Shown here piece by piece: positions 6,377-34,851 of a stretch of 35,624 nt of DNA. This DNA is from a virus (Duplodnaviria > Heunggongvirae > Uroviricota > Caudoviricetes). A program made the translations under genes and the position numbers. The stretch lies in IMG/VR virus record IMGVR_UViG_2778261544_000009, one strand, 5' to 3'. The stretch's first letter is position 1. Every line of letters starts with the position of its first letter. Under the pieces are notes generated by a model. The model saw nothing but the letters and a program-made list of their open reading frames with translations. It had not been told where the DNA came from and did no database searches.

Positions 6377-6758
6377 CGCAGAGAAAAATGAAATTAAATC
6401 CACATCCGCCAGCACCAGAAAACATCTTTATGATTTTTATGTCGCTTATAACCAGTGGTTAAAAAACGGAGCGCAAGAAACGGAAGGGGAAGGGTTTATT
6501 CGGGGAGTCGGATTATGCGCCAATGTTTATGACTATTTTGAATCAATCGGAGCAGACAGCGAGGCTGCGCTAGAACAATTACATGCGGATTTTGTCGCGA
6601 GTGGGCTGGATGAATCCCTGCCATTTAATGTAGATAACGTGCACTACCATGATGAATGCCTGCATGACAGATGCCACCTGAATTCTGCTCGTGTGGCATG
6701 GGTCGAAAAACACTGCATTAAGGAGATGGGGCAAAATGAGTCGCACATCCCTGATTAA
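6369..6758 (+). CDS. Hypothetical early protein (129 aa)
   Basis: Excellent RBS GAGGAGG 9 nt upstream of the ATG. Confidence 0.6.
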   Translation: MNNAEKNEIKSTSASTRKHLYDFYVAYNQWLKNGAQETEGEGFIRGVGLCANVYDYFESIGADSEAALEQLHADFVASGLDESLPFNVDNVHYHDECLHDRCHLNSARVAWVEKHCIKEMGQNESHIPD

Positions 6759-7287
6759 ATTAATTCATGTTGCCCGCCGGGAGTTGCACCTCGACGATGA
6801 CACTTACCGCGCCTTTCTGGTGCAGTGCACGGGCAAAACCAGTTGCCGCGAGCTGTCCGTTGCACAACTGGAACAAGTGCTCGATGCCATGAAAGAGCGC
6901 GGTTTTAAAAAGCAGAAAAAACATCCCCGCCGTCGCTTTAAGGGGCATGTCACACCGCGCGAGAAGATTTATAAAATCTGGCAGCAGATGTTTCTTGATG
7001 GTTTCGTCTCCGATATCAGCGACGCCGCGCTGGACAAATACGTTGAGCGCCTGACAGCCAGACGTAATGGCGGACAGGGTGTTTCCACGCTGGCCTGGTG
7101 TCACGGGGAATCGTTGCAGGTTGTGCTCGAAACGCTCAAACAGTGGCATATGCGCTGCATCCGGGAAGCCTTTGCCCGACATGGTGTGCCTTTACCTGTG
7201 AGCGAAACCGGGCGGGAGCTGCGCGGCTATGATGCACTGACCAGTGCATATGCCCGCGCACGAAACAGCGGGAGAATTGCTGTATGA
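6736..7287 (+). CDS. gemA: GemA-like protein (Mu gp16 family)
   Basis: Sequence MSRTSLIKLIHVARRELHLDDDTYRA... is Mu gp16-family-like and the gene sits directly before mor. Start taken at the internal ATG at 6736. Confidence 0.65.
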   Translation: MSRTSLIKLIHVARRELHLDDDTYRAFLVQCTGKTSCRELSVAQLEQVLDAMKERGFKKQKKHPRRRFKGHVTPREKIYKIWQQMFLDGFVSDISDAALDKYVERLTARRNGGQGVSTLAWCHGESLQVVLETLKQWHMRCIREAFARHGVPLPVSETGRELRGYDALTSAYARARNSGRIAV

Positions 7288-7733
7288 AACAGATGAAAGA
7301 GCAGGATTTATTCGAAGACCTTCGGGACGACAGCGTTCTGGAATATCTTCATGATTACCAGGAAAACACCGCTTATCCGGCGTTAATTTCTGAACTGAAC
7401 GCACTGCTGCGTAAAGAGCTGGCCCGGATTGGCGCAGACCCTGCCCATTCCCTTGAGCTGGTTGTGGCGATTTGTCGCCATATCGGCGGGATGCAGGTTT
7501 ATGTTCCGAGGGGGAATATTCTGGAGAATCTTGTCCGGGATATGCGTATCTGGCGTGATTTTAACGGCCATAATATTCCTGAACTGGTTCAGCGTTACGG
7601 AGTGACGTATAAAACCGTCTACAAGGCCATCAAACGGATGCGACGTCTGGAGCGTAACAAATACCAGCCGGATTTGTTTTACCACTCCCCGAACCTGCCT
7701 CACCCCGTTCGTCGTCCGCCACTACGCCCTTAA
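7284..7733 (+). CDS. mor: Mor-family middle/late transcription activator
   Basis: Mor/C-family C-terminal HTH block ...RIWRDFNGHNIPELVQRYGVTYKTVYKAIKRMRRLERNKYQ...; last gene of the early operon. Confidence 0.85.
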   Translation: MKQMKEQDLFEDLRDDSVLEYLHDYQENTAYPALISELNALLRKELARIGADPAHSLELVVAICRHIGGMQVYVPRGNILENLVRDMRIWRDFNGHNIPELVQRYGVTYKTVYKAIKRMRRLERNKYQPDLFYHSPNLPHPVRRPPLRP

Positions 7734-7739
7734 TCAATG

Positions 7740-7763
7740 AAGCCGGTAAATCCGGCTTTTTTT
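7740..7763 (+). terminator. Intrinsic terminator at the end of the early operon
   Basis: Stem AGCCGG / loop TAAAT / CCGGCT followed by seven T, beginning 7 nt after the mor stop codon. Confidence 0.75.
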
Positions 7764-7818
7764 ATGCCTCCGGCACCATGAAGCAGACCACGTTTAAATC
7801 TGCTTCACAGGTGCTTTT

Positions 7819-8415
7819 ATGGAAAATCAAAAATTCTCCCCGGCCTTTGAACATGCGCTGAATTTTATTCTGCGTCCCGATATCGAAGGCGTTTATGTCA
7901 ATGACCCCACTGACCGTGGCGGCGAAACCAAATACGGCATTTCTGACCGCCGCGACGGTGTGATTGACGGCAAAACCGATGTCAACGGCGACGGCAAACC
8001 GGATACCCGCATTAAGGATTTAACCCGCGAACAGGTTGCGCAGATTTACTGGCGCGATTACTGGCTACCTGCCGGATGTGACCAGTGGCCTGATGGCGTG
8101 GCGATGTTTGTGTTCGATGCGGCGGTTCAGCATGGCGTTAAAAAAGCCATCAGAATTTTGCAGGAAGCCGCTGATGTGGATGCTGACGGCATCATCGGCC
8201 CACGTACCCGTAAGGCTGTGAGTCTGTCCACCCCGGACTGGCTGCTGGCCCGCTGCATTGTCCGTCGTTCCCGCTTTTATGCCGACATCATCAAATCAAA
8301 ACCCGCCCAGGGCAAATACCTGAACGGCTGGTTTAACCGCATGGAAAAACTGACCGACGCCTGTCTGGAAATCATCGATACCCCTCTGGGCATCATGTCC
8401 GCCACGCGGGGGTGA
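7819..8415 (+). CDS. Endolysin, GH108-like N-terminal domain with C-terminal peptidoglycan-binding domain
   Basis: N-terminal FILRPDIEGVYVNDPTDRGGETKYGIS resembles the GH108 signature and the C-terminus ...DADGIIGPRTRKAV... is PG-binding-like. No N-terminal hydrophobic SAR segment. Confidence 0.75.
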   Translation: MENQKFSPAFEHALNFILRPDIEGVYVNDPTDRGGETKYGISDRRDGVIDGKTDVNGDGKPDTRIKDLTREQVAQIYWRDYWLPAGCDQWPDGVAMFVFDAAVQHGVKKAIRILQEAADVDADGIIGPRTRKAVSLSTPDWLLARCIVRRSRFYADIIKSKPAQGKYLNGWFNRMEKLTDACLEIIDTPLGIMSATRG

Positions 8416-9038: not shown

Positions 9039-9634
9039 CCCTTTCAGGCATCGCCTCTGTTCTGCTGAAAGCCGGGCCGGGGCTGATTCGTTCCGTCGGG
9101 CGCTGGTTTGGTGGCAGCACATCTGCCGCCGCTGACTCGGTGGCCGGTATGGTGGAAAGCGTCCGGGAAAGCCTTCCCGTTGCTGAACAGCAACGCATTC
9201 TGGAACAAAAACTGGGGATGCTGTCACCGGAGCAACTGGTGCAACTGGAAACCCTGAAAATTCAGCTGCAACAGCTGGAGGTGGAACGGCAGAAGCTGGT
9301 GCTGGCTGACCAGCAGGCCGCACACCACGAACAGCAGGAAACCATCCGCAATGGTGACAACGCCACGGACAGCTATGTGCGACAGACACGCCCGCTGCTG
9401 GCCCGCCTTTCCTGTTACAGCAGTCTGGCCTATGTGCTGTTGCTCTCCTGCGGCCAGATTGCCGGAGCCATTGCGGGTGCCAGAGGTATCACGCTGCATA
9501 TGCCATCACCGGACTGGGATATCACGCTGATGTTGCTTACCCCGGCGCTGGGCTATCTCGGCGTAAGAACCCTTGACGGCTTTGCCCGTTACAGCAAATC
9601 AAGCCGTCACAAAATGTCTGTGGGGCCGAAATGA
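9026..9634 (+). CDS. Holin-like membrane protein with central coiled coil
   Basis: AAGGGGG RBS; Q/L-rich heptad region followed by C-terminal hydrophobic segments. It resembles the prophage '3TM holin' architecture; family assignment is unverified. Confidence 0.5.
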   Translation: MDPLTLSGIASVLLKAGPGLIRSVGRWFGGSTSAAADSVAGMVESVRESLPVAEQQRILEQKLGMLSPEQLVQLETLKIQLQQLEVERQKLVLADQQAAHHEQQETIRNGDNATDSYVRQTRPLLARLSCYSSLAYVLLLSCGQIAGAIAGARGITLHMPSPDWDITLMLLTPALGYLGVRTLDGFARYSKSSRHKMSVGPK

Positions 9635-10743: not shown

Positions 10744-10880
10744 AAAGAATCCGATAAGTAAAGCGTCCCGTGATGAACTTCGCCGTCTGGCGCACAACCT
10801 GACATGGCGTGAAATCCAGAGTGGCGCGCTGAAATCTGCATACGAAAGTTTACAGCGTAGTGAGCAACAGGAGGGCACTC

Positions 10881-11462
10881 ATGGAAAATGAACAACGCCC
10901 CACCCGTGGCCGTCTTTCCAAAGTGGATTTACTCCCGGACAGCATCCGGGAGCAGTTGCATCAGATGCTGCGGGAAAAGCGGCACACGCAGGAAGAAATC
11001 CGCGAAGCCATCAATGCCCTGATTGATGAACACAACCTGCCGGAAGAGATGCAGTTAAGCCGGACGGGCTTAAACCGCTACGCCATCCGCATGGAAAAAG
11101 TCGGGGCAAAAATCCGCGCCTCCCGCGAAATGGCCGAAGTCTGGGCGGCAAAGCTGGGGTCCGCGCCGACGTCAGACGTCGGCAAGCTGCTGATGGAGTT
11201 TGTAAAAACGCTGGCCTTTGAAACGTCCATGTCGATGGCAGAAGACGACAAACCTGTTGCACCGAAGGCGCTGGGCCAACTGGCGCTGGTTGCCCAGCGT
11301 CTGGAAGCGGCAGCCATGACCAGCCATAAACGCGAGAAAGCGATCCGCGATGCGTTTGCGCAGGAGATGGCAGAGAAAACCGAAGAACTGGTCAGAACGG
11401 GCGGTCTGTCAGGTGGTGCGGCTGACACCATCAAACGTGAAATTCTGGGGATTAGCGCATGA
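10881..11462 (+). CDS. Terminase small-subunit-like protein (Mu gp27 position)
   Basis: AGGAGGG RBS then ATG at 10881 (the track ORF begins at a GTG at 10860); sits immediately upstream of the large terminase. Confidence 0.6.
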   Translation: MENEQRPTRGRLSKVDLLPDSIREQLHQMLREKRHTQEEIREAINALIDEHNLPEEMQLSRTGLNRYAIRMEKVGAKIRASREMAEVWAAKLGSAPTSDVGKLLMEFVKTLAFETSMSMAEDDKPVAPKALGQLALVAQRLEAAAMTSHKREKAIRDAFAQEMAEKTEELVRTGGLSGGAADTIKREILGISA

Positions 11463-12994: not shown

Positions 12995-14562
12995 ACCTGA
13001 AACAACTGGCCGGAGCCGTCCGCCGTCTGCTGAACCAGGCAACCGGTGAGGAAGACACGCTGAAAAAAGAGGCGCTCAACGAAGCACAGGCCCGTCCGCG
13101 TCATGCCGGTGTGCGTTCGGCCTCGCCGGGCATCAGCGTCGCCTCCGGGCTGAATCCCGGCAGGCTGGCAGGCATTCTGCGCAATGCCGCCGACGGCATC
13201 ACGCGTGATTTTTTTATCCTTGCTGAAGAGATGGAAGAACGCGATTTGCATTACGCCTCGGTGCTGCGCACCCGCAAGCTGACGGTGGCGGGTATCGAAC
13301 CGGTGGTGGTGGCCGCCAGTGATGACGATGCTGACGTGCAACTGGCGGACGCCATCCGTGCGCTGATGGAAGCCCCGCAAATCCCTGAGCTGATGTTTGA
13401 TTTGCTCGACGGGCTGGGAAAAGGCGTGGCGGTCTGTGAAATCCTGTGGGACACCCGCAACAACCACTGGATGCCCCGTGATTATGAGTGGGTTGATCCC
13501 CGTTTTCTGAAAGCCGAAAAACCCACGCTGCGCCAGTTCCGCCTGCTGACGGACGATGAACCGGTGGATGGCGTACCGCTGACACCGGGAAAATTCATTG
13601 TTCACCAGCCGCGCCTGAAATCCGGTCTGCCGCTGCGTAACGGTCTGGCCCGTCTGGTGGCGGTGATGTATATGCTGAAATCCTTTACCGTGCGTGACTG
13701 GTGGGCATTTGCGGAAAAGTTCGGCATTCCGGTCACGGTGGGGAAATACGGTCCCAACGCCACGGAGGAGCAAATCCGCGTACTGATTGATGCGATTGCG
13801 TCCATTGCCTCGGATGCCGGGTGTGCCATTCCGCAGTCCATGCAACTGGAGATGCAGGAAACCGCCAGCCGGAATAACGGCGGCGCACTGTTCCGTGAAA
13901 TGGCGGAATGGTGTGATGCGCAAATCAGTAAGGCTGTGCTGGGGCAGACCATGACCACGGATAACGGCAGTTCGCGTTCACAGGCGGACGTGCACAATCA
14001 GGTGCGCATGGACATTGTGCGCTGGGACGCGCGGCAACTGGCTAACACGCTGAATGAATATCTGGTGCGTCCCTATATCGAGGCCAACTACGGGCCACAG
14101 GCGCACTACCCCCGTGTTGTTCTGCGTATCAGTGAAGCAGAAGATCTGAAGGCGCTGACAGATGCTCTGGTGCCGCTGATTGACCGGGGGATGCGGGTTC
14201 AGGAATCAGAGCTGCGGGACCGGTTCGGCCTGGCTGAACCGGACGACGGGGCTGATGTTCTGCATCCGGTGTCCGCCGGGATGCCGGGTGATATGGCGAT
14301 GAACCGCGAGCGCGTCGCCCTGAACCGGGAACACCCCGACGAACTGGCACAGATGGTCGATGATGCCCTGCGTGACTGGCAGAAAACCGGCGAGGCGTTC
14401 ACGAACCCGGTGCTGACACTGGCGCAGGGATGCGACAGTTTTGATGACTTTCTGAAACGCCTGCCTGAGCTTCAGGAAACGCTGAACGCGGACGACTTTG
14501 CCCTGCAACTGGCGGAGGTGTGCTTTAAGGCGCGTGCGCTGGGGGACACTGCTCATGCGTGA
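12991..14562 (+). CDS. Portal protein (Mu gp29/H-like)
   Basis: 523 aa between terminase and the F-like gene; GTG start with GAGGGAGG RBS. Confidence 0.8.
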   Translation: MNLKQLAGAVRRLLNQATGEEDTLKKEALNEAQARPRHAGVRSASPGISVASGLNPGRLAGILRNAADGITRDFFILAEEMEERDLHYASVLRTRKLTVAGIEPVVVAASDDDADVQLADAIRALMEAPQIPELMFDLLDGLGKGVAVCEILWDTRNNHWMPRDYEWVDPRFLKAEKPTLRQFRLLTDDEPVDGVPLTPGKFIVHQPRLKSGLPLRNGLARLVAVMYMLKSFTVRDWWAFAEKFGIPVTVGKYGPNATEEQIRVLIDAIASIASDAGCAIPQSMQLEMQETASRNNGGALFREMAEWCDAQISKAVLGQTMTTDNGSSRSQADVHNQVRMDIVRWDARQLANTLNEYLVRPYIEANYGPQAHYPRVVLRISEAEDLKALTDALVPLIDRGMRVQESELRDRFGLAEPDDGADVLHPVSAGMPGDMAMNRERVALNREHPDELAQMVDDALRDWQKTGEAFTNPVLTLAQGCDSFDDFLKRLPELQETLNADDFALQLAEVCFKARALGDTAHA

Positions 14563-15319
14563 AACCCTCATCCCGAAAGAGGCGCTGGCGTGGCTGAAGG
14601 CGAAGAAGCTGCGCCCCGGTTTTGATTACCGGGATGTGTGGCGGGAAGAACACCGGAACAGCTTCACCGTGGCGAAAATGCTGCAACTGGATTTGTTGTC
14701 GGATGTGAAAGCCCTTGTGGAAGACGCCCTGCAAAGCGGGCAGACGTTCAGTGAGTTCCGGGAGGCGCTGCAACCACTGCTGATAAAACGCGGATGGTGG
14801 GGCATACAGGAGATGGATGATCCGCTGACGGGTGAAACCCGCACCGTGCAACTGGGCAGCGACCGCCGCCTCCGCACGATTTTTGACACCAACATGCGCA
14901 CTGCCCGCGCGGCGGGCCAGTGGGAACGCATTCAACGGACAAAGCGGGCCATGCCGTATCTGATTTACGAGCTGGGGCCATCCCGCGAGCACCGGGCGGA
15001 GCATGTGAAATGGGCGCGTCTGTGTCTGCCGGTAGATCACCCGTTCTGGCAGACACATTTTGCCCCTAACGGCTGGGGCTGCAAATGCACCATTCGTCAG
15101 GTCAGCCGTGGTGAGTATGCGCAACTGGCGGCACAGGGCACCATTCACACCGAAGCGCCGGAAATCAGAACTGTCCGCTGGGTGAACAAACGCACGGGCG
15201 AAGAGGAAGATGTGCCGGAAGGGATTGATCCGGGCTGGAACTACAATCCCGGCATAAACCGTGAGCAGGCGCTGGCGCGCCAGCTGGCGACAAAACAGGC
15301 CCGTTTTGACAGTGAGTAA
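14555..15319 (+). CDS. Head morphogenesis protein (Mu F-like)
   Basis: Follows the portal gene; start taken at the ATG at 14555 that overlaps the portal stop. Confidence 0.7.
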   Translation: MRETLIPKEALAWLKAKKLRPGFDYRDVWREEHRNSFTVAKMLQLDLLSDVKALVEDALQSGQTFSEFREALQPLLIKRGWWGIQEMDDPLTGETRTVQLGSDRRLRTIFDTNMRTARAAGQWERIQRTKRAMPYLIYELGPSREHRAEHVKWARLCLPVDHPFWQTHFAPNGWGCKCTIRQVSRGEYAQLAAQGTIHTEAPEIRTVRWVNKRTGEEEDVPEGIDPGWNYNPGINREQALARQLATKQARFDSE

Positions 15320-15533
15320 CCCTCCCGCCGCAAATCCCCCTGAAACGCATCAGAAACGCGTTTTTTTATTCTGATGGCGTGAATGTGCATTCTGACTTTT
15401 TTGAAGGCGCTGTGGCGTTTTTGAAGGGGTTTTGAAGGGGTATTCTTCCCGTTTTCAGTGAAGCCGGTAAATCCGGCTTTTTTTCTGCCTTCCGCATACT
15501 GACCGTCGGTAACCCCAAACGACGGAGACTGAC
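15320..15533. promoter_or_regulatory. Structured F-I intergenic region: hairpins, 3x TTTTGAAGG direct repeats, terminator-like element
   Basis: Direct repeat GAAACGC twice (15342-15360); inverted repeat CATCAGAA/TTCTGATG (15348-15377); TTTTGAAGG at 15399, 15419 and 15430; hairpin plus T-run at 15460-15484; inverted repeat CCGTCG/CGACGG at 15503-15525. Confidence 0.6.
15460..15484 (+). terminator. Terminator-like hairpin, identical to the one at 7740-7763
   Basis: Same AGCCGG-TAAAT-CCGGCT stem-loop followed by a T-run. Confidence 0.65.
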
Positions 15534-16496
15534 ATGCAACCGGAACTGCTGGCGCTGTGTTTTTCCCTGCCAGAACCCATCACTGAGCTGACACCCGCTC
15601 AACTGCCGGAATGGCTTGAACTCGTTCCTGCGGGTGAGTTCACCGGGCGTGATGGCCGGACGTGGATTAACCGCAATCCGCATGAGGTGGTTGCCCGCTC
15701 GTCCGACATCAAAATTCCGGTGGACATTGAACATGCCACCGAAATTAAAGGCCCGCGTGGTGAAGATGCTCCGGCGTATGGCTGGGTGGAAGAACTGCGG
15801 GTGACGGATGGCGGCACCATTGAAGGCCGTGTTGTCTGGAACGCGTCCGCCCGGTGGGTGCTGAGTGAGCGCCGCTACCGCTATTACAGCCCGGCGTTTT
15901 TCCATGACGCGGAGGGTGTGGTGACGCGCCTGTCCAGCGTCGGGCTGACCAACAAACCTAACCTGGATTTTCCTGCACTGAATACGGAGAAAAACCCGAT
16001 GACAGTACCTGTGCAAATCACCGGCCTGCTTGGGCTGGCTGAATCTGCCACGGTGGACGATACCGTGGCCGCCATTAAACAACTTCAGGAGAACGAACAG
16101 GTGGCGCTGAACCGCGCACAGACACCTGACCTGACGAAGTTTGTGCCGGTTGAAACCCACAATCTGGCACTGAATCGTGCCGAAACCGCAGAACAACGCC
16201 TTCAGCAACTGGAAGAGAAGGAAGCCGAGGCGCTTGTGGATGCGGCCATCGAGGCCGGAAAAGTGGCCCCGGCAAACCGTGACATGTTCCTTGCCACCTG
16301 CCGCACGGAAGAAGGCCGCAAACAGTTTGCGGAGTACACCAGAGGTGCACAGCCGCTGGTGAACAACGACAAGCCCAGCCAGGGCAAGGATAAACCCGCG
16401 CAGACACTGACCGACGCCGAACTGGCGATGTGCCGCAGCATGGGTATTACCGGGGAAGAGTTCCTCGCCGCTAAACCTAAACAGGAGAATAACTGA
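15534..16496 (+). CDS. Head protease/scaffold (Mu I-like)
   Basis: 320 aa immediately upstream of the major head gene; GGAG RBS. Confidence 0.75.
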   Translation: MQPELLALCFSLPEPITELTPAQLPEWLELVPAGEFTGRDGRTWINRNPHEVVARSSDIKIPVDIEHATEIKGPRGEDAPAYGWVEELRVTDGGTIEGRVVWNASARWVLSERRYRYYSPAFFHDAEGVVTRLSSVGLTNKPNLDFPALNTEKNPMTVPVQITGLLGLAESATVDDTVAAIKQLQENEQVALNRAQTPDLTKFVPVETHNLALNRAETAEQRLQQLEEKEAEALVDAAIEAGKVAPANRDMFLATCRTEEGRKQFAEYTRGAQPLVNNDKPSQGKDKPAQTLTDAELAMCRSMGITGEEFLAAKPKQENN

Positions 16497-17791: not shown

Positions 17792-18228
17792 TGGGGTATA
17801 TCACGCAGGAAGACCTGTTACGCGCGGACGGCAATCTTGTCTGGAACATGGCGATTAACCGGGAAACCAACGAACTGGATGAAGACAAAATCCGTCAGGC
17901 CATCAGTGATGCCGAAGCGGAAATTGATTCGTTTCTGTCCCGCCGCTACCAGCTGCCGCTGGGGGTGACGGAAATCCCGCGCCCGCTGCAACGCGTGGCG
18001 GTATCGCTGGCGTTTTACTGGCTATCAGAGCGTGACAATCAAATCACGGAGCTGATCCAGAAACGCTACGACGACGCCATTAAAACCCTGCGTGAGATGG
18101 CGAACGGCACCCGCGACCTGGGCCTGCCGACGTATGCCACCCCGGCAGAAACCGACCACGGGAAAATCATTGTGGTGGGTGCCAACGCCCGGCTGTTCAC
18201 CCGTAACAACCTGAAAGGGGTGCTGTGA
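17791..18228 (+). CDS. Putative head-tail joining/connector protein
   Basis: 145-aa ORF with start/stop overlap to its neighbours. Confidence 0.5.
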   Translation: MGYITQEDLLRADGNLVWNMAINRETNELDEDKIRQAISDAEAEIDSFLSRRYQLPLGVTEIPRPLQRVAVSLAFYWLSERDNQITELIQKRYDDAIKTLREMANGTRDLGLPTYATPAETDHGKIIVVGANARLFTRNNLKGVL

Positions 18229-26060: not shown

Positions 26061-26587
26061 ACGCCATTGCCCGCCGTCTGCGGCTGATGGTTGACCGTGC
26101 CATTGTCCGCATGGTGTCTGACAGTCTGGAGCGGCAGAACCTGCAAATCCAGACGCTGGCAGATGCCACTGATGACGATGTGGAACGCTTCCAGAATTAC
26201 GGGTTTACTTCCGTTCCGCCGGAAGGTTCAGAAGCCATCGTGCTGGCCGTGGGCGGACGGCGTGACGGGCTGGTTGCCATCGCGGTGGAGGATAAGCGAT
26301 GTCGCCCTAAAGGCTTGTCCACCGGCGACGTCCGGCTGTATCACCAGGACGGCAAATCACATATCACGTTAAGGAAAGGCGGAATTATTGAAATCACAGG
26401 AGAACAATTAAACTTTTCAGGGAAAACGGTAAATCTCACCGCCGACGAATTGCTGAATATTATCGGTAAACAAATGAAATTCGTCGGTCCCTGTGAATTT
26501 ACTGAAGATGTCAGAATCAACGGTAAATCATTCATCGAACACATTCATAAGGACGGCGACAATGAGAATACATCACCGCCCGTATGA
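26051..26587 (+). CDS. Baseplate assembly/spike protein (V-like)
   Basis: 178 aa in the baseplate block. Confidence 0.55.
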   Translation: MGLNAIARRLRLMVDRAIVRMVSDSLERQNLQIQTLADATDDDVERFQNYGFTSVPPEGSEAIVLAVGGRRDGLVAIAVEDKRCRPKGLSTGDVRLYHQDGKSHITLRKGGIIEITGEQLNFSGKTVNLTADELLNIIGKQMKFVGPCEFTEDVRINGKSFIEHIHKDGDNENTSPPV

Positions 26588-29684: not shown

Positions 29685-30215
29685 ATGGAACTCAGAAACG
29701 TCACGCGTTATTACCCGGAAGAGATGCCTTATGGTGAAAACATTCAGTATTTCCGCAGTGAAGACGGACAGGATTTTTATGAATCACTGGATAAATTCAC
29801 GAAGAAATACAAATTGTGTATTCACCCTGAAAGCGGCGTGATTTATTCAATGGCGGAAGACGTGTCCCGTCTTTATCCGGCTGGCTTCACCATTGTGGAA
29901 GTGGATGAACTGCCGGAAGGTTTTGGCATTGAAGCCAGCTGGTATTACAAAGACGGCGAAGTGCTGCCGGTTCCTGTTGATTACTCGCGACTGGCAGAAA
30001 AAAAACGCCAGAGCCTGCTGAATGAAGCGAAGGACATCACCTCCGACTGGAAAACCGAGCTGGAGCTGGGCACCATCAGCGACGATGATAAAGCCCGTCT
30101 TACGCAGTGGATGGCATATATCAAAGCGGTAAAGGCACTGGATTTAAGCACCGTTACTGACGAAGCCTCCTTTTACTCCATCAACTGGCCGGAGCGTCCC
30201 GATGCCGCAGCTTAA
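29685..30215 (+). CDS. Tail fiber assembly protein (Tfa/U-like)
   Basis: AAGGAG RBS then ATG at 29685; ends ...INWPERPDAAA, typical of Tfa chaperones. Confidence 0.7.
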   Translation: MELRNVTRYYPEEMPYGENIQYFRSEDGQDFYESLDKFTKKYKLCIHPESGVIYSMAEDVSRLYPAGFTIVEVDELPEGFGIEASWYYKDGEVLPVPVDYSRLAEKKRQSLLNEAKDITSDWKTELELGTISDDDKARLTQWMAYIKAVKALDLSTVTDEASFYSINWPERPDAAA

Positions 30216-33200
30216 AGGTGTGATTAAAACGCCCACGGGAGAACCGCTGGGCGGCGCAACAATTACACTGACCTCCCTGCACAACCGTGCAGGGATTCTG
30301 AAAAGTGTTTTCAGCCATGTCACCACACAGAGCGGGGAGTACGACTTCCCCGTTCTGCCGGGTGTGTACAGCGTTCGCCTGACACAAAGCACACAGCGCC
30401 TTTCAGAAATCGGTGTCATCCGCGTTTATGAGGATTCAGCGGACGGTTCGCTGAATGATTTTCTGGGCGCAACCGATATTGACCTGCGCCCGGAAGCCCT
30501 GAAGAAATTCGAGGAACTGGCGCAACAGGCGCAGCAAAGCGCAGAAAAAGCAGGAGAGCACGCCACCGCTGCTGAACAGGCCCGCCAGGATACAGAAACG
30601 CTCGCCTGGGAAATACAGCAGGATGCAGAAGAAATTGCGGGTAATGTGCAGAAAGCTGAAGAGCTGGCCTCTGAAACAAACCAGAATGCCGCCCGCGCAG
30701 AGCAGGCTGTCAAGGATGCTGACGCGATAGTCCAGAAAGCGGTCGATAAACTTGCTGATGCTGCAACGCTGACCGGCGAGGCAAAAGCCAGCGCCGAAGC
30801 GGCAGCAAAAAGCGAACAGAACTCGAAACAGCACAGGGACGAGGCGCAACGGATAGTTGATGACCTGAAGGGAAGCAATGCCTCCACGACGGAAAAAGGC
30901 CTGGTGCAACTCTGTAGTGATACAGACAACGACAGCGAAGAACTGGCAGCCACACCAAAGGCTGTCAAAACCGTCATGGACGAGACGAAAACAAAAGCTC
31001 CACTGGACAGCCCGGTGTTCACCGGCACGCCAACCACACCAACCCCACCGGATGATGCAGTCGGTCTGGAAACCGCGAACGCGGCATTTGTTCGCAAACT
31101 GCTCGCCGCACTGGTTGACTCGTCACCGGAAGCCCTGGACACACTGAATGAGCTGGCAGCGGCGCTGGGCAATGACCCGGAGTTCGCGACAACAATCATG
31201 AACGCGCTGGCGGGTAAACAACCACTCAGTGACGTGTTAACCGCAATCAGTAATCTGGAAGAACGGGCAGATAATCTTCTGTGCTTTAATCAGGACGGGA
31301 ATGCTTCACTGTCTCCGCTGTCAGAAAAAGCCCGGTCACTGCTGGCACAGGCCACAGTGGAAGCCATGCGCAATGAGCTTGAGCTGAAAAGCGCGGCGGT
31401 AAAGGACATTCAGACAGACCTTTACGACAGCTCGGAAGGCCGTGTTGCGCTGCCTGGTGCATTTGGTTACGGAATGACGGACGCCGGAGCGCGTTCAATT
31501 ATTGCCAGCGATATGGCGACTGTAGCCAGAACTGCGCACAACCTGCACCCGGGACGGTATTACACCTTTTCCACACAAACGGAAGAGACGACCGGAATAA
31601 CAGAAATTATCTGGCTGGATAATGGCTGGGGCGACAAAACAAGCCAGACAGCAACAAAGCTGGTTCTGTTTTTTGGAAAAGACGGACGGATTCTTATGAC
31701 CGTTCGTGGCGATAATATCTCCGCCCCGGTCACCTGGACGAATCTGACGCTACAACTGGGCAATGCAGCACAGAAGGATGCACAGGAGAATATTTACGAC
31801 CGCACCGAAGGCCGTCTGGCGATTCCCGGCATGTTTGGATTCGGGAAAGTATTTTCCAGCGGCGACAGGACCGAATTTAAAACAGAGGCCGATTTTCTCC
31901 GCTGGGTAAAAACAGCAAAACCCGGTCGTTATGTCGTTTATGGCGCAGATAAAGTGATTCCCGGAGTCCTGTTCAGCGGCACCGTTGAAATTATCTGGCC
32001 GGAACCTCAAACCAACTCCAATCCGGTATATGTGGCCAAAATCATTATTTTTTACGGTATTAACGGCCATATTTATTACAATCGCTACTGGACTACCGGA
32101 GATGGTTATCTGGTTGGCTGGGAAAACCTGAAAGTCAACGAGGCTTCACTCCGGGCACTGATTGAAACCCGCGCGCCACTGAACAGCCCGGCACTGACCG
32201 GAACGCCGTCCACGCCAACACCACCAGATGATGCAGCAGGTAATGAAATAGCCAATGCGGAGTTTGTCCGCAAACTGCTTGCCGCGCTGGTTGGCTCATC
32301 ACCGGAAGCCCTGGACACGCTGAACGAACTGGCGGCGGCACTGGGCAATGACCCGAACTTTGCGACAACAGTCACTAATGCACTGGCAGGTAAACAGCCG
32401 CTTAATGACGTGTTAACGGCTGTCAGCCAGATAACACCGGAAGAAAACACACTGCCTTATTTCAGTGAAGAGGGCCGGATTTTACTGGCGCAGCTGTCAG
32501 AAAAAGCCCGCGCATTACTGGCACTGGACACACCTGAGGCCATGCGCACGGAGCTTGAACTGAAAGCGGCTGCGACGATGGAGCCCCAGAGCGATATCCG
32601 CGACCGCACACCAGGCAGACTGGCACTGTCCGGCATGTACGGATTCGGTCAGGCATTTGCCAGCACCGACGCCCTGACATTTACCGGACAGGCTGATTTT
32701 GCTGAATGGCTGAAAGAGGCCACCCCGGGGCGTTATGCGGTCAGTATTGCGGACTCTTCCACGCTGCTGGCTGGCACCACGAAATTTAACGGCATCATTG
32801 ATGTGATGTGGTCGCCCTTTGATAACGATGAATCGGACACAACGCGTAAATTCAAAACGTTGCTGTGTTTTAACCAGTATTACGAAGGCGAACACAGCAT
32901 TCATCGCCTGACTTACCGCTGGAGTGGAAACAACTGGAATGCAACAGTAAGCCCTGTCATTTACGACGGCGATTCGCTGGCGTTCTTACTCTCCCGGACA
33001 GCAGGCTCAGGCTCATATTACAAATATCCGGCAGTTGGTGTGCCGGTTATGGCGGCATATCAGGGGGAAAGTTTTGGTGCTGATGTGTCTCTGGGACTCG
33101 GTGATATTGTGCCGGGTTCCCGTCTTGGCCCTCTGGCTATGAGTGCTTCAGTTAGCGATACAGGGACATACGTATCCACACCGCAAGTGGCAATTGGTGG

Positions 33201-33306
33201 TGCCAGTGCATACAACTTTCCCGGTCGTTATATGGCGCTTTCGGGGTCACGCAGTAATCACGATACAAAACGTGGCTATATTGGTCTTTTTGTGCGTATC
33301 GAGTAA
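30202..33306 (+). CDS. Side tail fiber protein (lambda Stf / P2 H-like), 1034 aa with internal repeats
   Basis: N-terminus GVYSVRLTQ...IRVYEDSADGSLNDFLGA matches the Stf-family N-domain; two copies of the LAATPKAVK...APLxSPxxTGTPTTPTPPDD...LVDSSPEALDTLNELAAALGNDP collar repeat; three GRLAxPGxFGFG...PGRY tip-like modules. Confidence 0.85.
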   Translation: MPQLKGVIKTPTGEPLGGATITLTSLHNRAGILKSVFSHVTTQSGEYDFPVLPGVYSVRLTQSTQRLSEIGVIRVYEDSADGSLNDFLGATDIDLRPEALKKFEELAQQAQQSAEKAGEHATAAEQARQDTETLAWEIQQDAEEIAGNVQKAEELASETNQNAARAEQAVKDADAIVQKAVDKLADAATLTGEAKASAEAAAKSEQNSKQHRDEAQRIVDDLKGSNASTTEKGLVQLCSDTDNDSEELAATPKAVKTVMDETKTKAPLDSPVFTGTPTTPTPPDDAVGLETANAAFVRKLLAALVDSSPEALDTLNELAAALGNDPEFATTIMNALAGKQPLSDVLTAISNLEERADNLLCFNQDGNASLSPLSEKARSLLAQATVEAMRNELELKSAAVKDIQTDLYDSSEGRVALPGAFGYGMTDAGARSIIASDMATVARTAHNLHPGRYYTFSTQTEETTGITEIIWLDNGWGDKTSQTATKLVLFFGKDGRILMTVRGDNISAPVTWTNLTLQLGNAAQKDAQENIYDRTEGRLAIPGMFGFGKVFSSGDRTEFKTEADFLRWVKTAKPGRYVVYGADKVIPGVLFSGTVEIIWPEPQTNSNPVYVAKIIIFYGINGHIYYNRYWTTGDGYLVGWENLKVNEASLRALIETRAPLNSPALTGTPSTPTPPDDAAGNEIANAEFVRKLLAALVGSSPEALDTLNELAAALGNDPNFATTVTNALAGKQPLNDVLTAVSQITPEENTLPYFSEEGRILLAQLSEKARALLALDTPEAMRTELELKAAATMEPQSDIRDRTPGRLALSGMYGFGQAFASTDALTFTGQADFAEWLKEATPGRYAVSIADSSTLLAGTTKFNGIIDVMWSPFDNDESDTTRKFKTLLCFNQYYEGEHSIHRLTYRWSGNNWNATVSPVIYDGDSLAFLLSRTAGSGSYYKYPAVGVPVMAAYQGESFGADVSLGLGDIVPGSRLGPLAMSASVSDTGTYVSTPQVAIGGASAYNFPGRYMALSGSRSNHDTKRGYIGLFVRIE

Positions 33307-33320
33307 CGGGGAAATAAGAC

Positions 33321-33896
33321 ATGAAAATCAGAGCGATAAAAGGCATCAGAAATGCCCATTATCTCGAAAATGGTGCGGTTGACTGCGAGGTGTTATTTGA
33401 AGGTGAAACGGAATTCGTCCCGTATACCGCCATGCAGGATGATACCGCAATGACAGGCCAGCGCATCTGGGAAGAGTTACAGAGCGGCAAATGGGGTGAA
33501 ATCGCCCCGTTTACAGTCACGCCTGAACTTATCGCAGCGGCAAAAGATGCCAAAAAGATGGAAATCGAGGCGTGGCGCACAGAACAGGAGGCGCAGCCGT
33601 TCACGTTCGAATGGAACGGCCGCCCTTGGAATGCTGGCCCCGACTCACTGGCCCGTCTTTATCCGGTAGTAATGGCGGCGAAATCCGATACGGCAAGAAC
33701 CGCCCTTGCGTGGGGTGACGCCAATAATCAACAGGTGAAACTGTCAATGTCGGAACTGGAAGAACTGGCGGTAGCAATGGCGCAGGCGCAGCTCGATCGC
33801 AATGACGGGATTTATCAGCGCCAGCGTGAAATGAAGGAGCAGCTTTCCCGGCTGTCCATACTGGACGAGGTGAGAGCGTTAACTGTCGGTGATTAA
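33321..33896 (+). CDS. Putative tail fiber assembly/chaperone protein (second)
   Basis: 191-aa ORF immediately downstream of the large fiber gene. Confidence 0.55.
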   Translation: MKIRAIKGIRNAHYLENGAVDCEVLFEGETEFVPYTAMQDDTAMTGQRIWEELQSGKWGEIAPFTVTPELIAAAKDAKKMEIEAWRTEQEAQPFTFEWNGRPWNAGPDSLARLYPVVMAAKSDTARTALAWGDANNQQVKLSMSELEELAVAMAQAQLDRNDGIYQRQREMKEQLSRLSILDEVRALTVGD

Positions 33897-34019
33897 ATAA
33901 TCAGTTTGTATAGTTTATGACGATCGATAACATCATATCGATCGTCGGTTTGCATCGGTTGTGATTAAATACCCCCAGCCCTCCGGGCGGTCATGTCTGG
34001 TTATTACACAGGGGGAATC
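33897..34019. promoter_or_regulatory. mom-operon regulatory region with GATC-containing inverted repeat
   Basis: Perfect 11-bp inverted repeat GACGATCGATA-N6-TATCGATCGTC at 33919-33946 carrying two GATC sites; CCCCC...GGGGG elements nearer the com start. Confidence 0.6.
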
Positions 34020-34205
34020 ATGGACTCTGTTCGCTGTAAAAACTGCAATAAATTACTGTTTAAAGGAGGTTTTAAGCATATAGAAATTAAATGCCCTCGC
34101 TGTAAACGTTACATTGTCATATCGAATGCCAAAGAGCATCCCACGGAGCTGTATTGTGGGAAAAGAGAAGAAATCACGCATTCTGACAAAACCCTGCGTT
34201 ATTGA
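34020..34205 (+). CDS. com: Com zinc-finger translational activator of mom
   Basis: 61 aa, CKNCNKLLF...CPRCKR zinc finger ending ...[10 protein letters not shown]; AGGGGGA RBS. An alternative ATG lies at 33993. Confidence 0.85.
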
Positions 34206-34851
34206 GTATGAAGGCCGGATTGTCGGCTATGGTTCAAAGGAGCTGCGCGTTGAAACCATATCCTGCTGGCTGGCCCGCACAATCATTCAGACAAAACACT
34301 ATTCCCGCCGTTTTGTGAATAACTCCTACCTGCATTTGGGCGTATTCAGCGGACGTGATCTGGTTGGTGTTCTTCAGTGGGGATATGCCCTTAACCCCAG
34401 CTCAGGGCGTCGTGTTGTGCTGGAAACGGATAACCGGGGCTATATGGAACTGAACCGCATGTGGCTACACGACGACATGCCCCGCAATTCTGAATCACGG
34501 GCCATCAGCTACGCGCTGAAAACCATCAGGTTACTGTACCCGTCAGTGGAGTGGGTTCAGTCCTTTGCAGACGAACGCTGCGGACGTGCTGGCATGGTAT
34601 ATCAGGCGTCGAATTTTGATTTTATAGGCAGCCACGAAAGCACGTTCTACGAACTGGACGGCGAGTGGTATCACGAGATAACGATGAACGCGATTAAGCG
34701 CGGAGGACAACGAGGCGAGTATTTACGGGCTAATAAGGAGCGGGCCGTGGTACACAAATTTAATCAGTATCGCTACATCAGATTCCTGAACAAGCGCGCA
34801 AAAAAGCGCCTAAACACTAAGCTATTCAGGGTTCAGCCATACCCGAAGTGA
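34126..34851 (+). CDS. mom: Mom DNA-modification protein
   Basis: Overlaps the 3' end of com, as in Mu. Start uncertain: TTG at 34114, ATG at 34126, or GTG at 34156. Confidence 0.8.

Follow-up and report, generated by a model that had tools for sequence, protein, structure and literature searches.

Introduction

The transcription cascade of phage Mu, which runs from early to middle to late genes through the activators Mor and then C, is the textbook model for its family. In the Mu genome record (AF083977), the Mor-dependent middle promoter Pm spans positions 9163-9233, directly 3' of mor, and contains a predicted terminator at 9179-9200. The Mor site in Pm is a 16-bp imperfect dyad, with two 5-bp inverted repeats flanking a G/C-rich hexanucleotide, and lies at −51 to −36 with its centre at −43.5. 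The promoter has a −10 but no −35 element, and the α-CTD contact falls just upstream of the Mor site (PMC4390567, PMC4287176). Mu has a single Pm, which drives a middle operon that ends in C, and it is C on which the late promoters Plys and PI depend.

Here we describe a repeated element in a complete Mu-like prophage (IMG/VR record IMGVR_UViG_2778261544_000009); by the window we mean the whole stretch of DNA that was analysed, 35,624 nucleotides long. The early region of this prophage is ~70% identical to that of Mu, the window ends on the right with a host gene for a sigma-54 activator, and close relatives with up to 98% identity (98% in E. coli STEC388 and KFu019) occur in ~1% of complete E. 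coli genomes (68 of 5426). Besides T and the baseplate genes gp43-48, the prophage carries the following genes:

6691-7287: GemA
7284-7733, plus strand: mor, the last gene of the early operon and the only Mor/C-family activator gene in the window (Pfam PF08765, E 1e-29)
7819-8415, plus strand: GH108 endolysin (lys), the first gene of the lysis/head operon (Pfam PF05838 and PF09374)
10860-11462: small terminase
14498-15319: Mu-F
15534-16496, plus strand: gene I, head protease/scaffold, the first gene of the second late operon (Pfam PF10123)
33993-34851: com-mom

Inside a 1034-aa tail-fibre ORF (30202-33306), a 254-nt direct repeat (30997-31250 and 32173-32426, 81% identical and 1176 nt apart) constitutes an internal duplication of a fibre segment.

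Two copies of a terminator-like element

The exact 26-mer TGAAGCCGGTAAATCCGGCTTTTTTT occurs twice in the window, at 7738-7763 and 15459-15484, with no third copy there even when three mismatches are allowed and no match in 100 dinucleotide shuffles. An earlier note on this DNA had reported the repeat with its second copy beginning at 15458, one base too early. Similarity between the copies extends more widely, with 86% identity between 7727-7775 and 15448-15496; the copy before lys reads cAATGAAGCCGGTAAATCCGGCTTTTTTTATGCCTCCGGCACCATGAAGCAGa and the copy before I reads cAGTGAAGCCGGTAAATCCGGCTTTTTTTCTGCCTTCCGCATACTGACCGTCg. Downstream of the T-run these continue as A-TGCCT-C-C-G-GCA and C-TGCCT-T-C-C-GCA, respectively, so that the shared segment TGCCT-Y-C-S-GCA is present as it had been read before, within the common pattern TGCCT..C..GCA...TGA. 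Pfam matches likewise bear out the gene context given for the repeat, with a Mor-family ORF followed by a GH108 endolysin at the first copy and Mu-F followed by the Mu-I protease at the second.

Each copy has the form of an intrinsic terminator, with an 8-pair stem that includes five G-C pairs, a 5-nt loop and T7 (RNA hairpin −12.6 kcal/mol, z about −3.5). The first begins 6 nt past the mor stop codon and the second lies 3' of F:

7739-7763, plus strand: intrinsic terminator predicted for the early operon, z −3.6 (stem 7739-7746/7752-7759, loop 7747-7751, T-run 7757-7763)
15460-15484, plus strand: predicted intrinsic terminator ending the lys-to-F operon (stem 15460-15467/15473-15480, T-run 15478-15484)

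In an alignment of 23 sequences that includes Mu Pm, the stem is paired in 94.9% of cells, with changes on both sides at two pairs (8 cells). None of 500 shuffles reached the observed pairing or covariation score, and the number of pairs changed on both sides (two) was not above that in shuffles (235/500). Examples of compensation come from copies before I, which have AACCGG/CCGGTT in relative L002 and AGGCGG/CCGCCT in relative L011, and where the stem varies the substitutions appear mostly compensatory.

The stem and T-run are not distinctive by themselves, as almost the same ones are found in the E. coli map-glnD terminator ATGAAGCCGGCGAATGCCGGCTTTTTT. The host terminator differs in its loop, CGAATG, which lacks the GGT(A/T)AAT half-site, and in having no −10 at the Pm spacing, and we read the likeness of the stems as chance or convergence among terminators. 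A weak match in ~730 E. coli genomes, considered as a possible copy of the phage element, was rejected because it is this host terminator. In locus L158 (601-633, the E. coli map-glnD intergenic region), ATGAAGCCGGCGAATGCCGGCTTTTTTAATGC stands 3' of map with a loop unlike that of the phage element.

Match to the middle promoter of Mu

Mu Pm reads cAGTAAAGCCGGTTAATCCGGCTTTTTTTACGTCCTCAATATCCTGTGATGAa. We rebuilt its register from the published mutagenesis, in which the wild-type bases at −57 to −52 are GTAAAC (PMC4390567, Table 3). This assignment places the Mu start at 9224 and makes the Mor site AGTAA-AGCCGG-TTAAT. Mu Pm can then be written AGTAA-AGCCGG-TTAAT-CCGGCTTTTTTT-(10 nt)-TATCCT, and the window copies AATGA/AGTGA-AGCCGG-TAAAT-CCGGCTTTTTTT-(10 nt)-CACCAT/CATACT. 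Carrying the register over to the window gives these features:

7730-7735, plus strand: A/T-rich patch TTAATC at predicted −57 to −52, the equivalent of the proximal UP subsite of Pm, with a putative α-CTD role
7736-7751, plus strand: predicted Mor site AATGA-AGCCGG-TAAAT at predicted −51 to −36, formed by the 5' stem arm and loop
7774-7779, plus strand: −10 hexamer CACCAT, at the distance from the Mor site that TATCCT has in Mu
7787, plus strand: predicted start (A), 8 nt past the hexamer as in Mu Pm
15451-15456, plus strand: A/T-rich patch GTTTTC of the second copy, at predicted −57 to −52
15457-15472, plus strand: second predicted Mor site, AGTGA-AGCCGG-TAAAT
15495-15500, plus strand: −10 hexamer CATACT of the second copy, from spacing and from conservation before I
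15508, plus strand: predicted start (G) of the second copy, from the Mu register

The likeness to Pm comprises an identical AGCCGG spacer within a 16-bp imperfect dyad, CCGGC-T7 followed by the same 22-nt distance to a −10-like hexamer, an A/T-rich segment at −57 to −52 with C at −52 in both copies (TTAATC and GTTTTC), the lack of a −35 hexamer and, for the first copy, a position directly after mor. The half-sites differ, with AATGA or AGTGA in place of the AGTAA of Mu and TAAAT in place of TTAAT. A position weight matrix (PWM) built from 22 sites scores 26.8 bits at the lys copy and 26.4 bits at the I copy, with a maximum of 15.9 in 50 shuffles. The −10 hexamers are weak (3-4 of 6 positions) and the start sites are extrapolated from Mu; a scan for −35/−10 consensus promoters of the sigma-70 type found none at either operon head.

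Register with Mu supports the assignment of the activator site to the 16 bp of the 5' arm and loop, which Mor is predicted to bind. The 3' arm and T-run would then stand where a −35 hexamer and spacer would be, and the conserved bases past the T-run appear to be promoter spacer and −10 hexamer. The earlier note had proposed a terminator combined with an activator site and copied between operon starts, and had looked for the activator site past the T-run. The combination is favored by the resemblance to Pm and by the retention of promoter parts at both junctions in relatives (see below), but the activator site is better placed inside the hairpin.

The activator

The protein encoded by mor is 62% identical to Mu Mor and 33% identical to Mu C. 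The helix-turn-helix of C contacts DNA through R98, S110, Q113, Y115, Q116 and R120 (2025 cryo-EM preprint). At the positions aligned with S110, Q113, Y115, Q116 and R120, the window protein and Mu Mor alike have T, T, Y, K and R, and at the R98 position Mu Mor has R and the window protein H, so that five of the six contact positions agree with Mor. The window protein also has a proline-rich C-terminal extension of ~17 aa (YHSPNLPHPVRRPPLRP) that is absent from Mu Mor.

By tblastn, no second Mor/C gene was detected in the window, nor within 10 kb of mor in ten relatives. From this result, we infer that the window phage lacks C and a middle operon and has its endolysin directly behind a Pm-type element, with the cognate Mor gene (PF08765 match) encoded in the early operon that precedes the lys element. 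Plys and PI of Mu occupy the same genomic positions and have the same role, before lys and before I, and resemble the window copies in having a predicted terminator upstream, in their (here predicted) dependence on an activator, and in a −10 without a −35. However, their activator is the less similar C, for which the window has no gene, and both share CCCGCACCT and lack the AGCCGG-TWAAT of the window element. The window copies do not conform to the C-dependent late type, with neither a C gene nor likeness to a C-type operator.

A related arrangement of genes is found in Yersinia phage vB_YpM_5 (MT374853), which is close to Mu (Mor 93%, C 99% and Lys 98% identical). As in the window, a Pm-type element is followed directly by a GH108 endolysin gene, whose product is 75% identical to that of the window lys; unlike the window, vB_YpM_5 retains C and a Mu-type Lys behind the GH108 gene, and with them a three-step cascade. 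The position of the GH108 gene behind Pm makes the lys promoter of the window the positional orthologue of Pm. The copy before I would be a second Pm-type promoter, standing at the position of the C-dependent PI of Mu. vB_YpM_5 itself (L156, 10154-12158) has two endolysin genes, GH108 in the middle operon and a Mu-type SAR endolysin, under two different activators.

The gap between F and I upstream of the element (15320-15456) resembles the region of the strong gyrase site of Mu. Relatives read TTAAACGCGCCACGGCGTTTTTAAACG there, Mu reads AAAACGCGCCACGGGATTTTTAAACCGG near the annotated gyrase cut site at 17879, and the window sequence has diverged here, with TTTTGAAGG(G) repeated three times, and also includes a second, weak hairpin with a T-run at ~15343-15367.

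Conservation in relatives

We compared the window with ten loci from Pluralibacter, Raoultella, Klebsiella, Serratia, Kluyvera and Brenneria, in which Mor is 65-70% identical to that of the window; the clade occurs in these genera and in E. coli. Klebsiella phage Kp4866-3, which is deposited as a phage genome in a GenBank record marked UNVERIFIED, has the C-less layout and both sites. The element precedes the lys homologue in 10/10 relatives, and a related element precedes I in every relative with sequence available. In relatives, a ~109-aa ORF for a predicted membrane protein lies in an A/T-rich stretch between mor and the element (L004, 10381-10710, with similar gaps in L003 and L005-L011); in the window, the element stands directly behind mor with no such ORF between them.

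The copy before I is near-identical to the lys copy, through the T-run and TGCCT, in the window and in L003, L008 and L009, and elsewhere it has diverged. What persists in the diverged copies is the 5' arm and loop, followed at unchanged or one-base-longer spacing by a hexamer, CAYACT or GACACT; the T-run of these copies has decayed, and their 3' arm is either kept by compensation (L002, L011) or lost (L005, L007). In L005 and L007, where the 3' arm or T-run is gone, the Mor half-site and −10 are retained, and overall the second Mor site is conserved before I in 10/10 relatives, even with the 3' arm lost. Across the 23 aligned sequences, the invariant columns are the core of the Mor site, A..gAA..CGGT.AATC, together with A at position 2 and T at position 6 of the −10. 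The Mor site is separated from the nAnnnT hexamer by the distance seen in Mu, constant or +1 in all 23 copies, and the bases at −57 to −52 are A/T-rich in all relatives, most of which have C or G at −52. The conservation past the T-run to which the earlier note had drawn attention is therefore found in relatives too, with the −10 A and T unchanged in 23/23 aligned copies.

The search was extended to related prophages with an exact-pattern scan of IMG/VR, which returned 98 stretches with 103 copies, and every classifiable copy lies between mor and lys (78) or between F and I (25). Taken together, these observations favor two functions that overlap, one of a DNA site and −10 which persist where the terminator has been lost, and one of a hairpin under selection of its own. 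We also considered the loop variant (TAAAT or TTAAT) as a co-varying specificity determinant, as it agrees in 10/10 pairs and 24/26 contigs, and dropped the idea, since two contigs disagree and relatedness accounts for most of the agreement.

Other candidate sites

The PWM also points to a candidate site within the baseplate gene gp45:

26419-26434, plus strand: candidate intragenic Mor site AGGGA-AAACGG-TAAAT (PWM)
26458-26463, plus strand: TATTAT, 23 nt downstream of the candidate site (PWM-site spacing)

This site, AGGGAAAACGGTAAAT, scores 18.9 bits, above all 50 shuffles (maximum 15.9), and has neither a 3' arm nor a T-run. Among 16 relatives with less than 93% nucleotide identity, synonymous positions within it are frozen, with Gly encoded by GGG in 15/16, Val only by GTA or GTT, and Asn by AAT in 15/15, and other Gly, Val and Asn columns of gp45 have mixed codons. 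In the relatives furthest from the window, a −10 cannot always be recognised. We regard it as a probable third Mor site, still a candidate, and one that may play the role of PP in Mu, which is likewise intragenic but lies in a different gene, N. Transcription of the tail genes would require read-through from the I promoter unless this candidate site serves them.

Before com-mom (33993-34851) and at the end of N, the place of PP in Mu, no Mor-type site scored above 8 bits. PWM matches at 32799 (minus strand), 23170, 10455 and 5010 were set aside as chance, as they fall within or near the range of the shuffles and have no −10. The region upstream of com-mom (33885-34025) contains two GATC sites in a palindrome-like stretch, GATCGATAACATCATATCGATC, an arrangement that recalls the Dam/OxyR control of Mu mom. 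In the same region, TGATTAAATA is repeated at 33891 and 33962, and com probably starts further downstream than its listed ATG at 33993.

A probable promoter within a terminator

Homology to Pm, spacing, the conservation pattern and gene content make it likely, in our judgement, that in each copy an intrinsic terminator houses a sigma-70 promoter of the Pm type that depends on Mor; Mor binding, the start sites and termination are predictions. As RNA, the GC stem and U7 would end the upstream transcript, which is the early operon past mor at the first copy and the lys-to-F operon at the second. As DNA, the 5' arm and loop would form the 16-bp Mor site, whose centre lies 43.5 bp 5' of the predicted start, with the weak −10 (CACCAT or CATACT) at the spacing of Mu Pm. 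Mor made from the early transcript would recruit RNA polymerase through the α-CTD and sigma region 4, and transcription would start at ~7787 into the lysis, packaging and head operon and at ~15508 into the I/T head-tail operon. With C and the middle operon both missing, Mor would act directly as the late activator, in a cascade of two steps compared with three in Mu. Points that weigh against this reading are the weak −10 hexamers, the lack of a Mor-type site before com-mom, the reliance of the tail genes on read-through or on the candidate gp45 site, the part that gene conversion may have had in the likeness of the two copies, and a stem and T-run that nearly recur in a host terminator.

The alternative that fares best, although we consider it improbable, is that the element is a terminator and nothing else, duplicated or homogenised by recombination, with the late genes transcribed by read-through or from promoters elsewhere. 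Both copies are indeed canonical terminators at the ends of operons, compensatory changes maintain the stem, and the host map-glnD terminator has nearly the same stem and T-run. A terminator does not explain, however, why the 5' arm and loop are conserved where the 3' arm or T-run is missing, as in some copies before I and at the gp45 site. A hexamer in which A and T do not vary also lies 22-23 nt downstream. Furthermore, the loop and its flanks match a footprinted Mor site, and the consensus scan offers no sigma-70-type promoter at either operon head.

A slightly weaker case can be made that only the copy after mor is functional and that the copy before I is a passenger of recent gene conversion or mosaic exchange. 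That the two copies are nearly identical in the window, L003, L008 and L009 and have diverged elsewhere suggests repeated homogenisation, and gene conversion rather than selection could be part of the reason for the near-identity in the lineage of the window. However, a Mor half-site and a CAYACT or GACACT hexamer stand before I at constant spacing in every relative examined, and this conservation, whether the copies are homogenised or not, indicates selection at I itself, which without C or a C-type site would otherwise be promoterless. Least credible of all is an RNA element for processive antitermination or attenuation, or a dispersed repeat of the REP or MITE type, instead of a protein-binding promoter: the hairpins are RNA-like and conserved, with extra conserved structure downstream, but an Rfam gathering scan of the whole window found no family, the loop and 5' arm, both conserved, correspond to a site footprinted on Mu DNA, and dispersal is absent, with two copies in the window and the classifiable IMG/VR copies confined to two syntenic junctions.

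A predicted hairpin that straddles the putative start site

With each copy taken as a Mor-dependent promoter inside a terminator, RNA folding (per-sequence folds against shuffles) points to a second structure, the strands of which lie on either side of the predicted start:

7769-7823, plus strand: hairpin split by the predicted start of the lys copy (RNA folding; co-varying strands)
15503-15525, plus strand: smaller split hairpin before I, CCGTCG (15503-15508)/CGACGG (15520-15525) (RNA folding)

At the lys copy, the 5' strand (7769-7787) runs from the spacer through the −10 to the predicted +1, and the 3' strand (7799-7823) holds the Shine-Dalgarno sequence GGTGC (7810-7814) and the start codon (7819). 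RNA of the window from 7764 to 7825 folds at −22.8 kcal/mol (z −4.79), and RNA that begins at 7787 folds at −5.7 kcal/mol (z −0.54). An inverted repeat is present in 18/18 diverse lys-type representatives, with its 5' arm made of the bases that separate the −10 from the predicted +1 and its 3' arm stopping just 5' of the Shine-Dalgarno sequence, and the helix extends outward as the −10 and spacer region pairs with GGTGC or the start codon. For these 18 copies, RNA from the T-run to the start codon averages −20.9 kcal/mol (z −4.1), and RNA from the predicted +1 averages −3.8 kcal/mol (z +0.4). Between 11 and 20 pairs straddle the predicted +1 in 48 distinct sequences. Pairing is better between a 5' strand and its cognate 3' strand than between non-cognate strands (permutation p 0.0002), with co-varying pairs such as ATGCCTGC/GCAGGCAT, CCCGGAA/TTCCGG and TCGGCA/TGCCGA. 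RNAalifold found no consensus structure in a MAFFT alignment of 18 diverse 5' regions, because variable loops misalign the 3' arms.

Before I, the GGAG ribosome site (15524-15527) lies partly within the 3' arm. The mean over nine relatives is −13.7 kcal/mol (z −2.3) for read-through RNA and −1.5 kcal/mol for RNA that begins at +1; the window's own split hairpin is weak at this copy (z −0.2 to −1.4). In Mu Pm (Mu locus L001, 1218-1250), GTGATGA at −7 to −1 forms pairs with TCATCAT, which lies at the gp18 start codon, and the 5' strand ends directly before the mapped +1; Mu's own Pm may share the design suggested by the folding models.

We therefore raise, tentatively and with more doubt than belief, the possibility that Pm-type promoters are three-in-one insulator cassettes made up of a terminator, a Mor promoter and a hairpin that silences read-through. 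RNA that leaked through the terminator would fold shut over the ribosome-binding site of the first gene, while RNA initiated with Mor would start just past the 5' strand of the hairpin and be open and translatable. Ensemble accessibility of −13 to +3 differs modestly, at 0.39 in read-through RNA and 0.48 in late RNA, which is why we keep silencing as a hypothesis. Davis, Simons and Kleckner reportedly described, in 1985, fold-back inhibition of externally initiated transcripts in IS10/Tn10. The hairpin modeled here is similar in that its 5' strand would lie upstream of the promoter's own start and its 3' strand over the ribosome-binding site, and in that it is predicted to form in read-through RNA only. 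It differs in belonging to a phage late operon instead of a transposase gene, and in being, by the same modeling, much weaker at gene I.

Discussion

The element appears not to be new in kind. Its parts are those of the promoter-terminator module of Mu Pm, which this C-less clade would use at least twice for late operons. Where Mu has one Pm that leads to the gene for the next activator, the window would have at least two Pm-type promoters placed directly before late operons, for lysis and packaging and for the head, and no C.

The split hairpin, if real, would add a post-transcriptional safeguard for the timing of lysis, of which a non-exhaustive literature search found no description for Mu, and a cassette of this kind would protect the cell from premature expression of lysis genes. 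At ~60 bp, the element would be a compact, portable part that combines a terminator, an activator-dependent promoter and possibly a silencer of read-through, and could find use as an inducible promoter with built-in insulation. Variation among the aligned copies reveals where change is tolerated in the Mor site and promoter, and complements both the published mutagenesis and the recent cryo-EM structures of Mor and C. For the Mu family, the clade appears to drive its late genes directly from copies of the Mor promoter, without C, and would provide a natural experiment in the gain or loss of a tier in a regulatory cascade.
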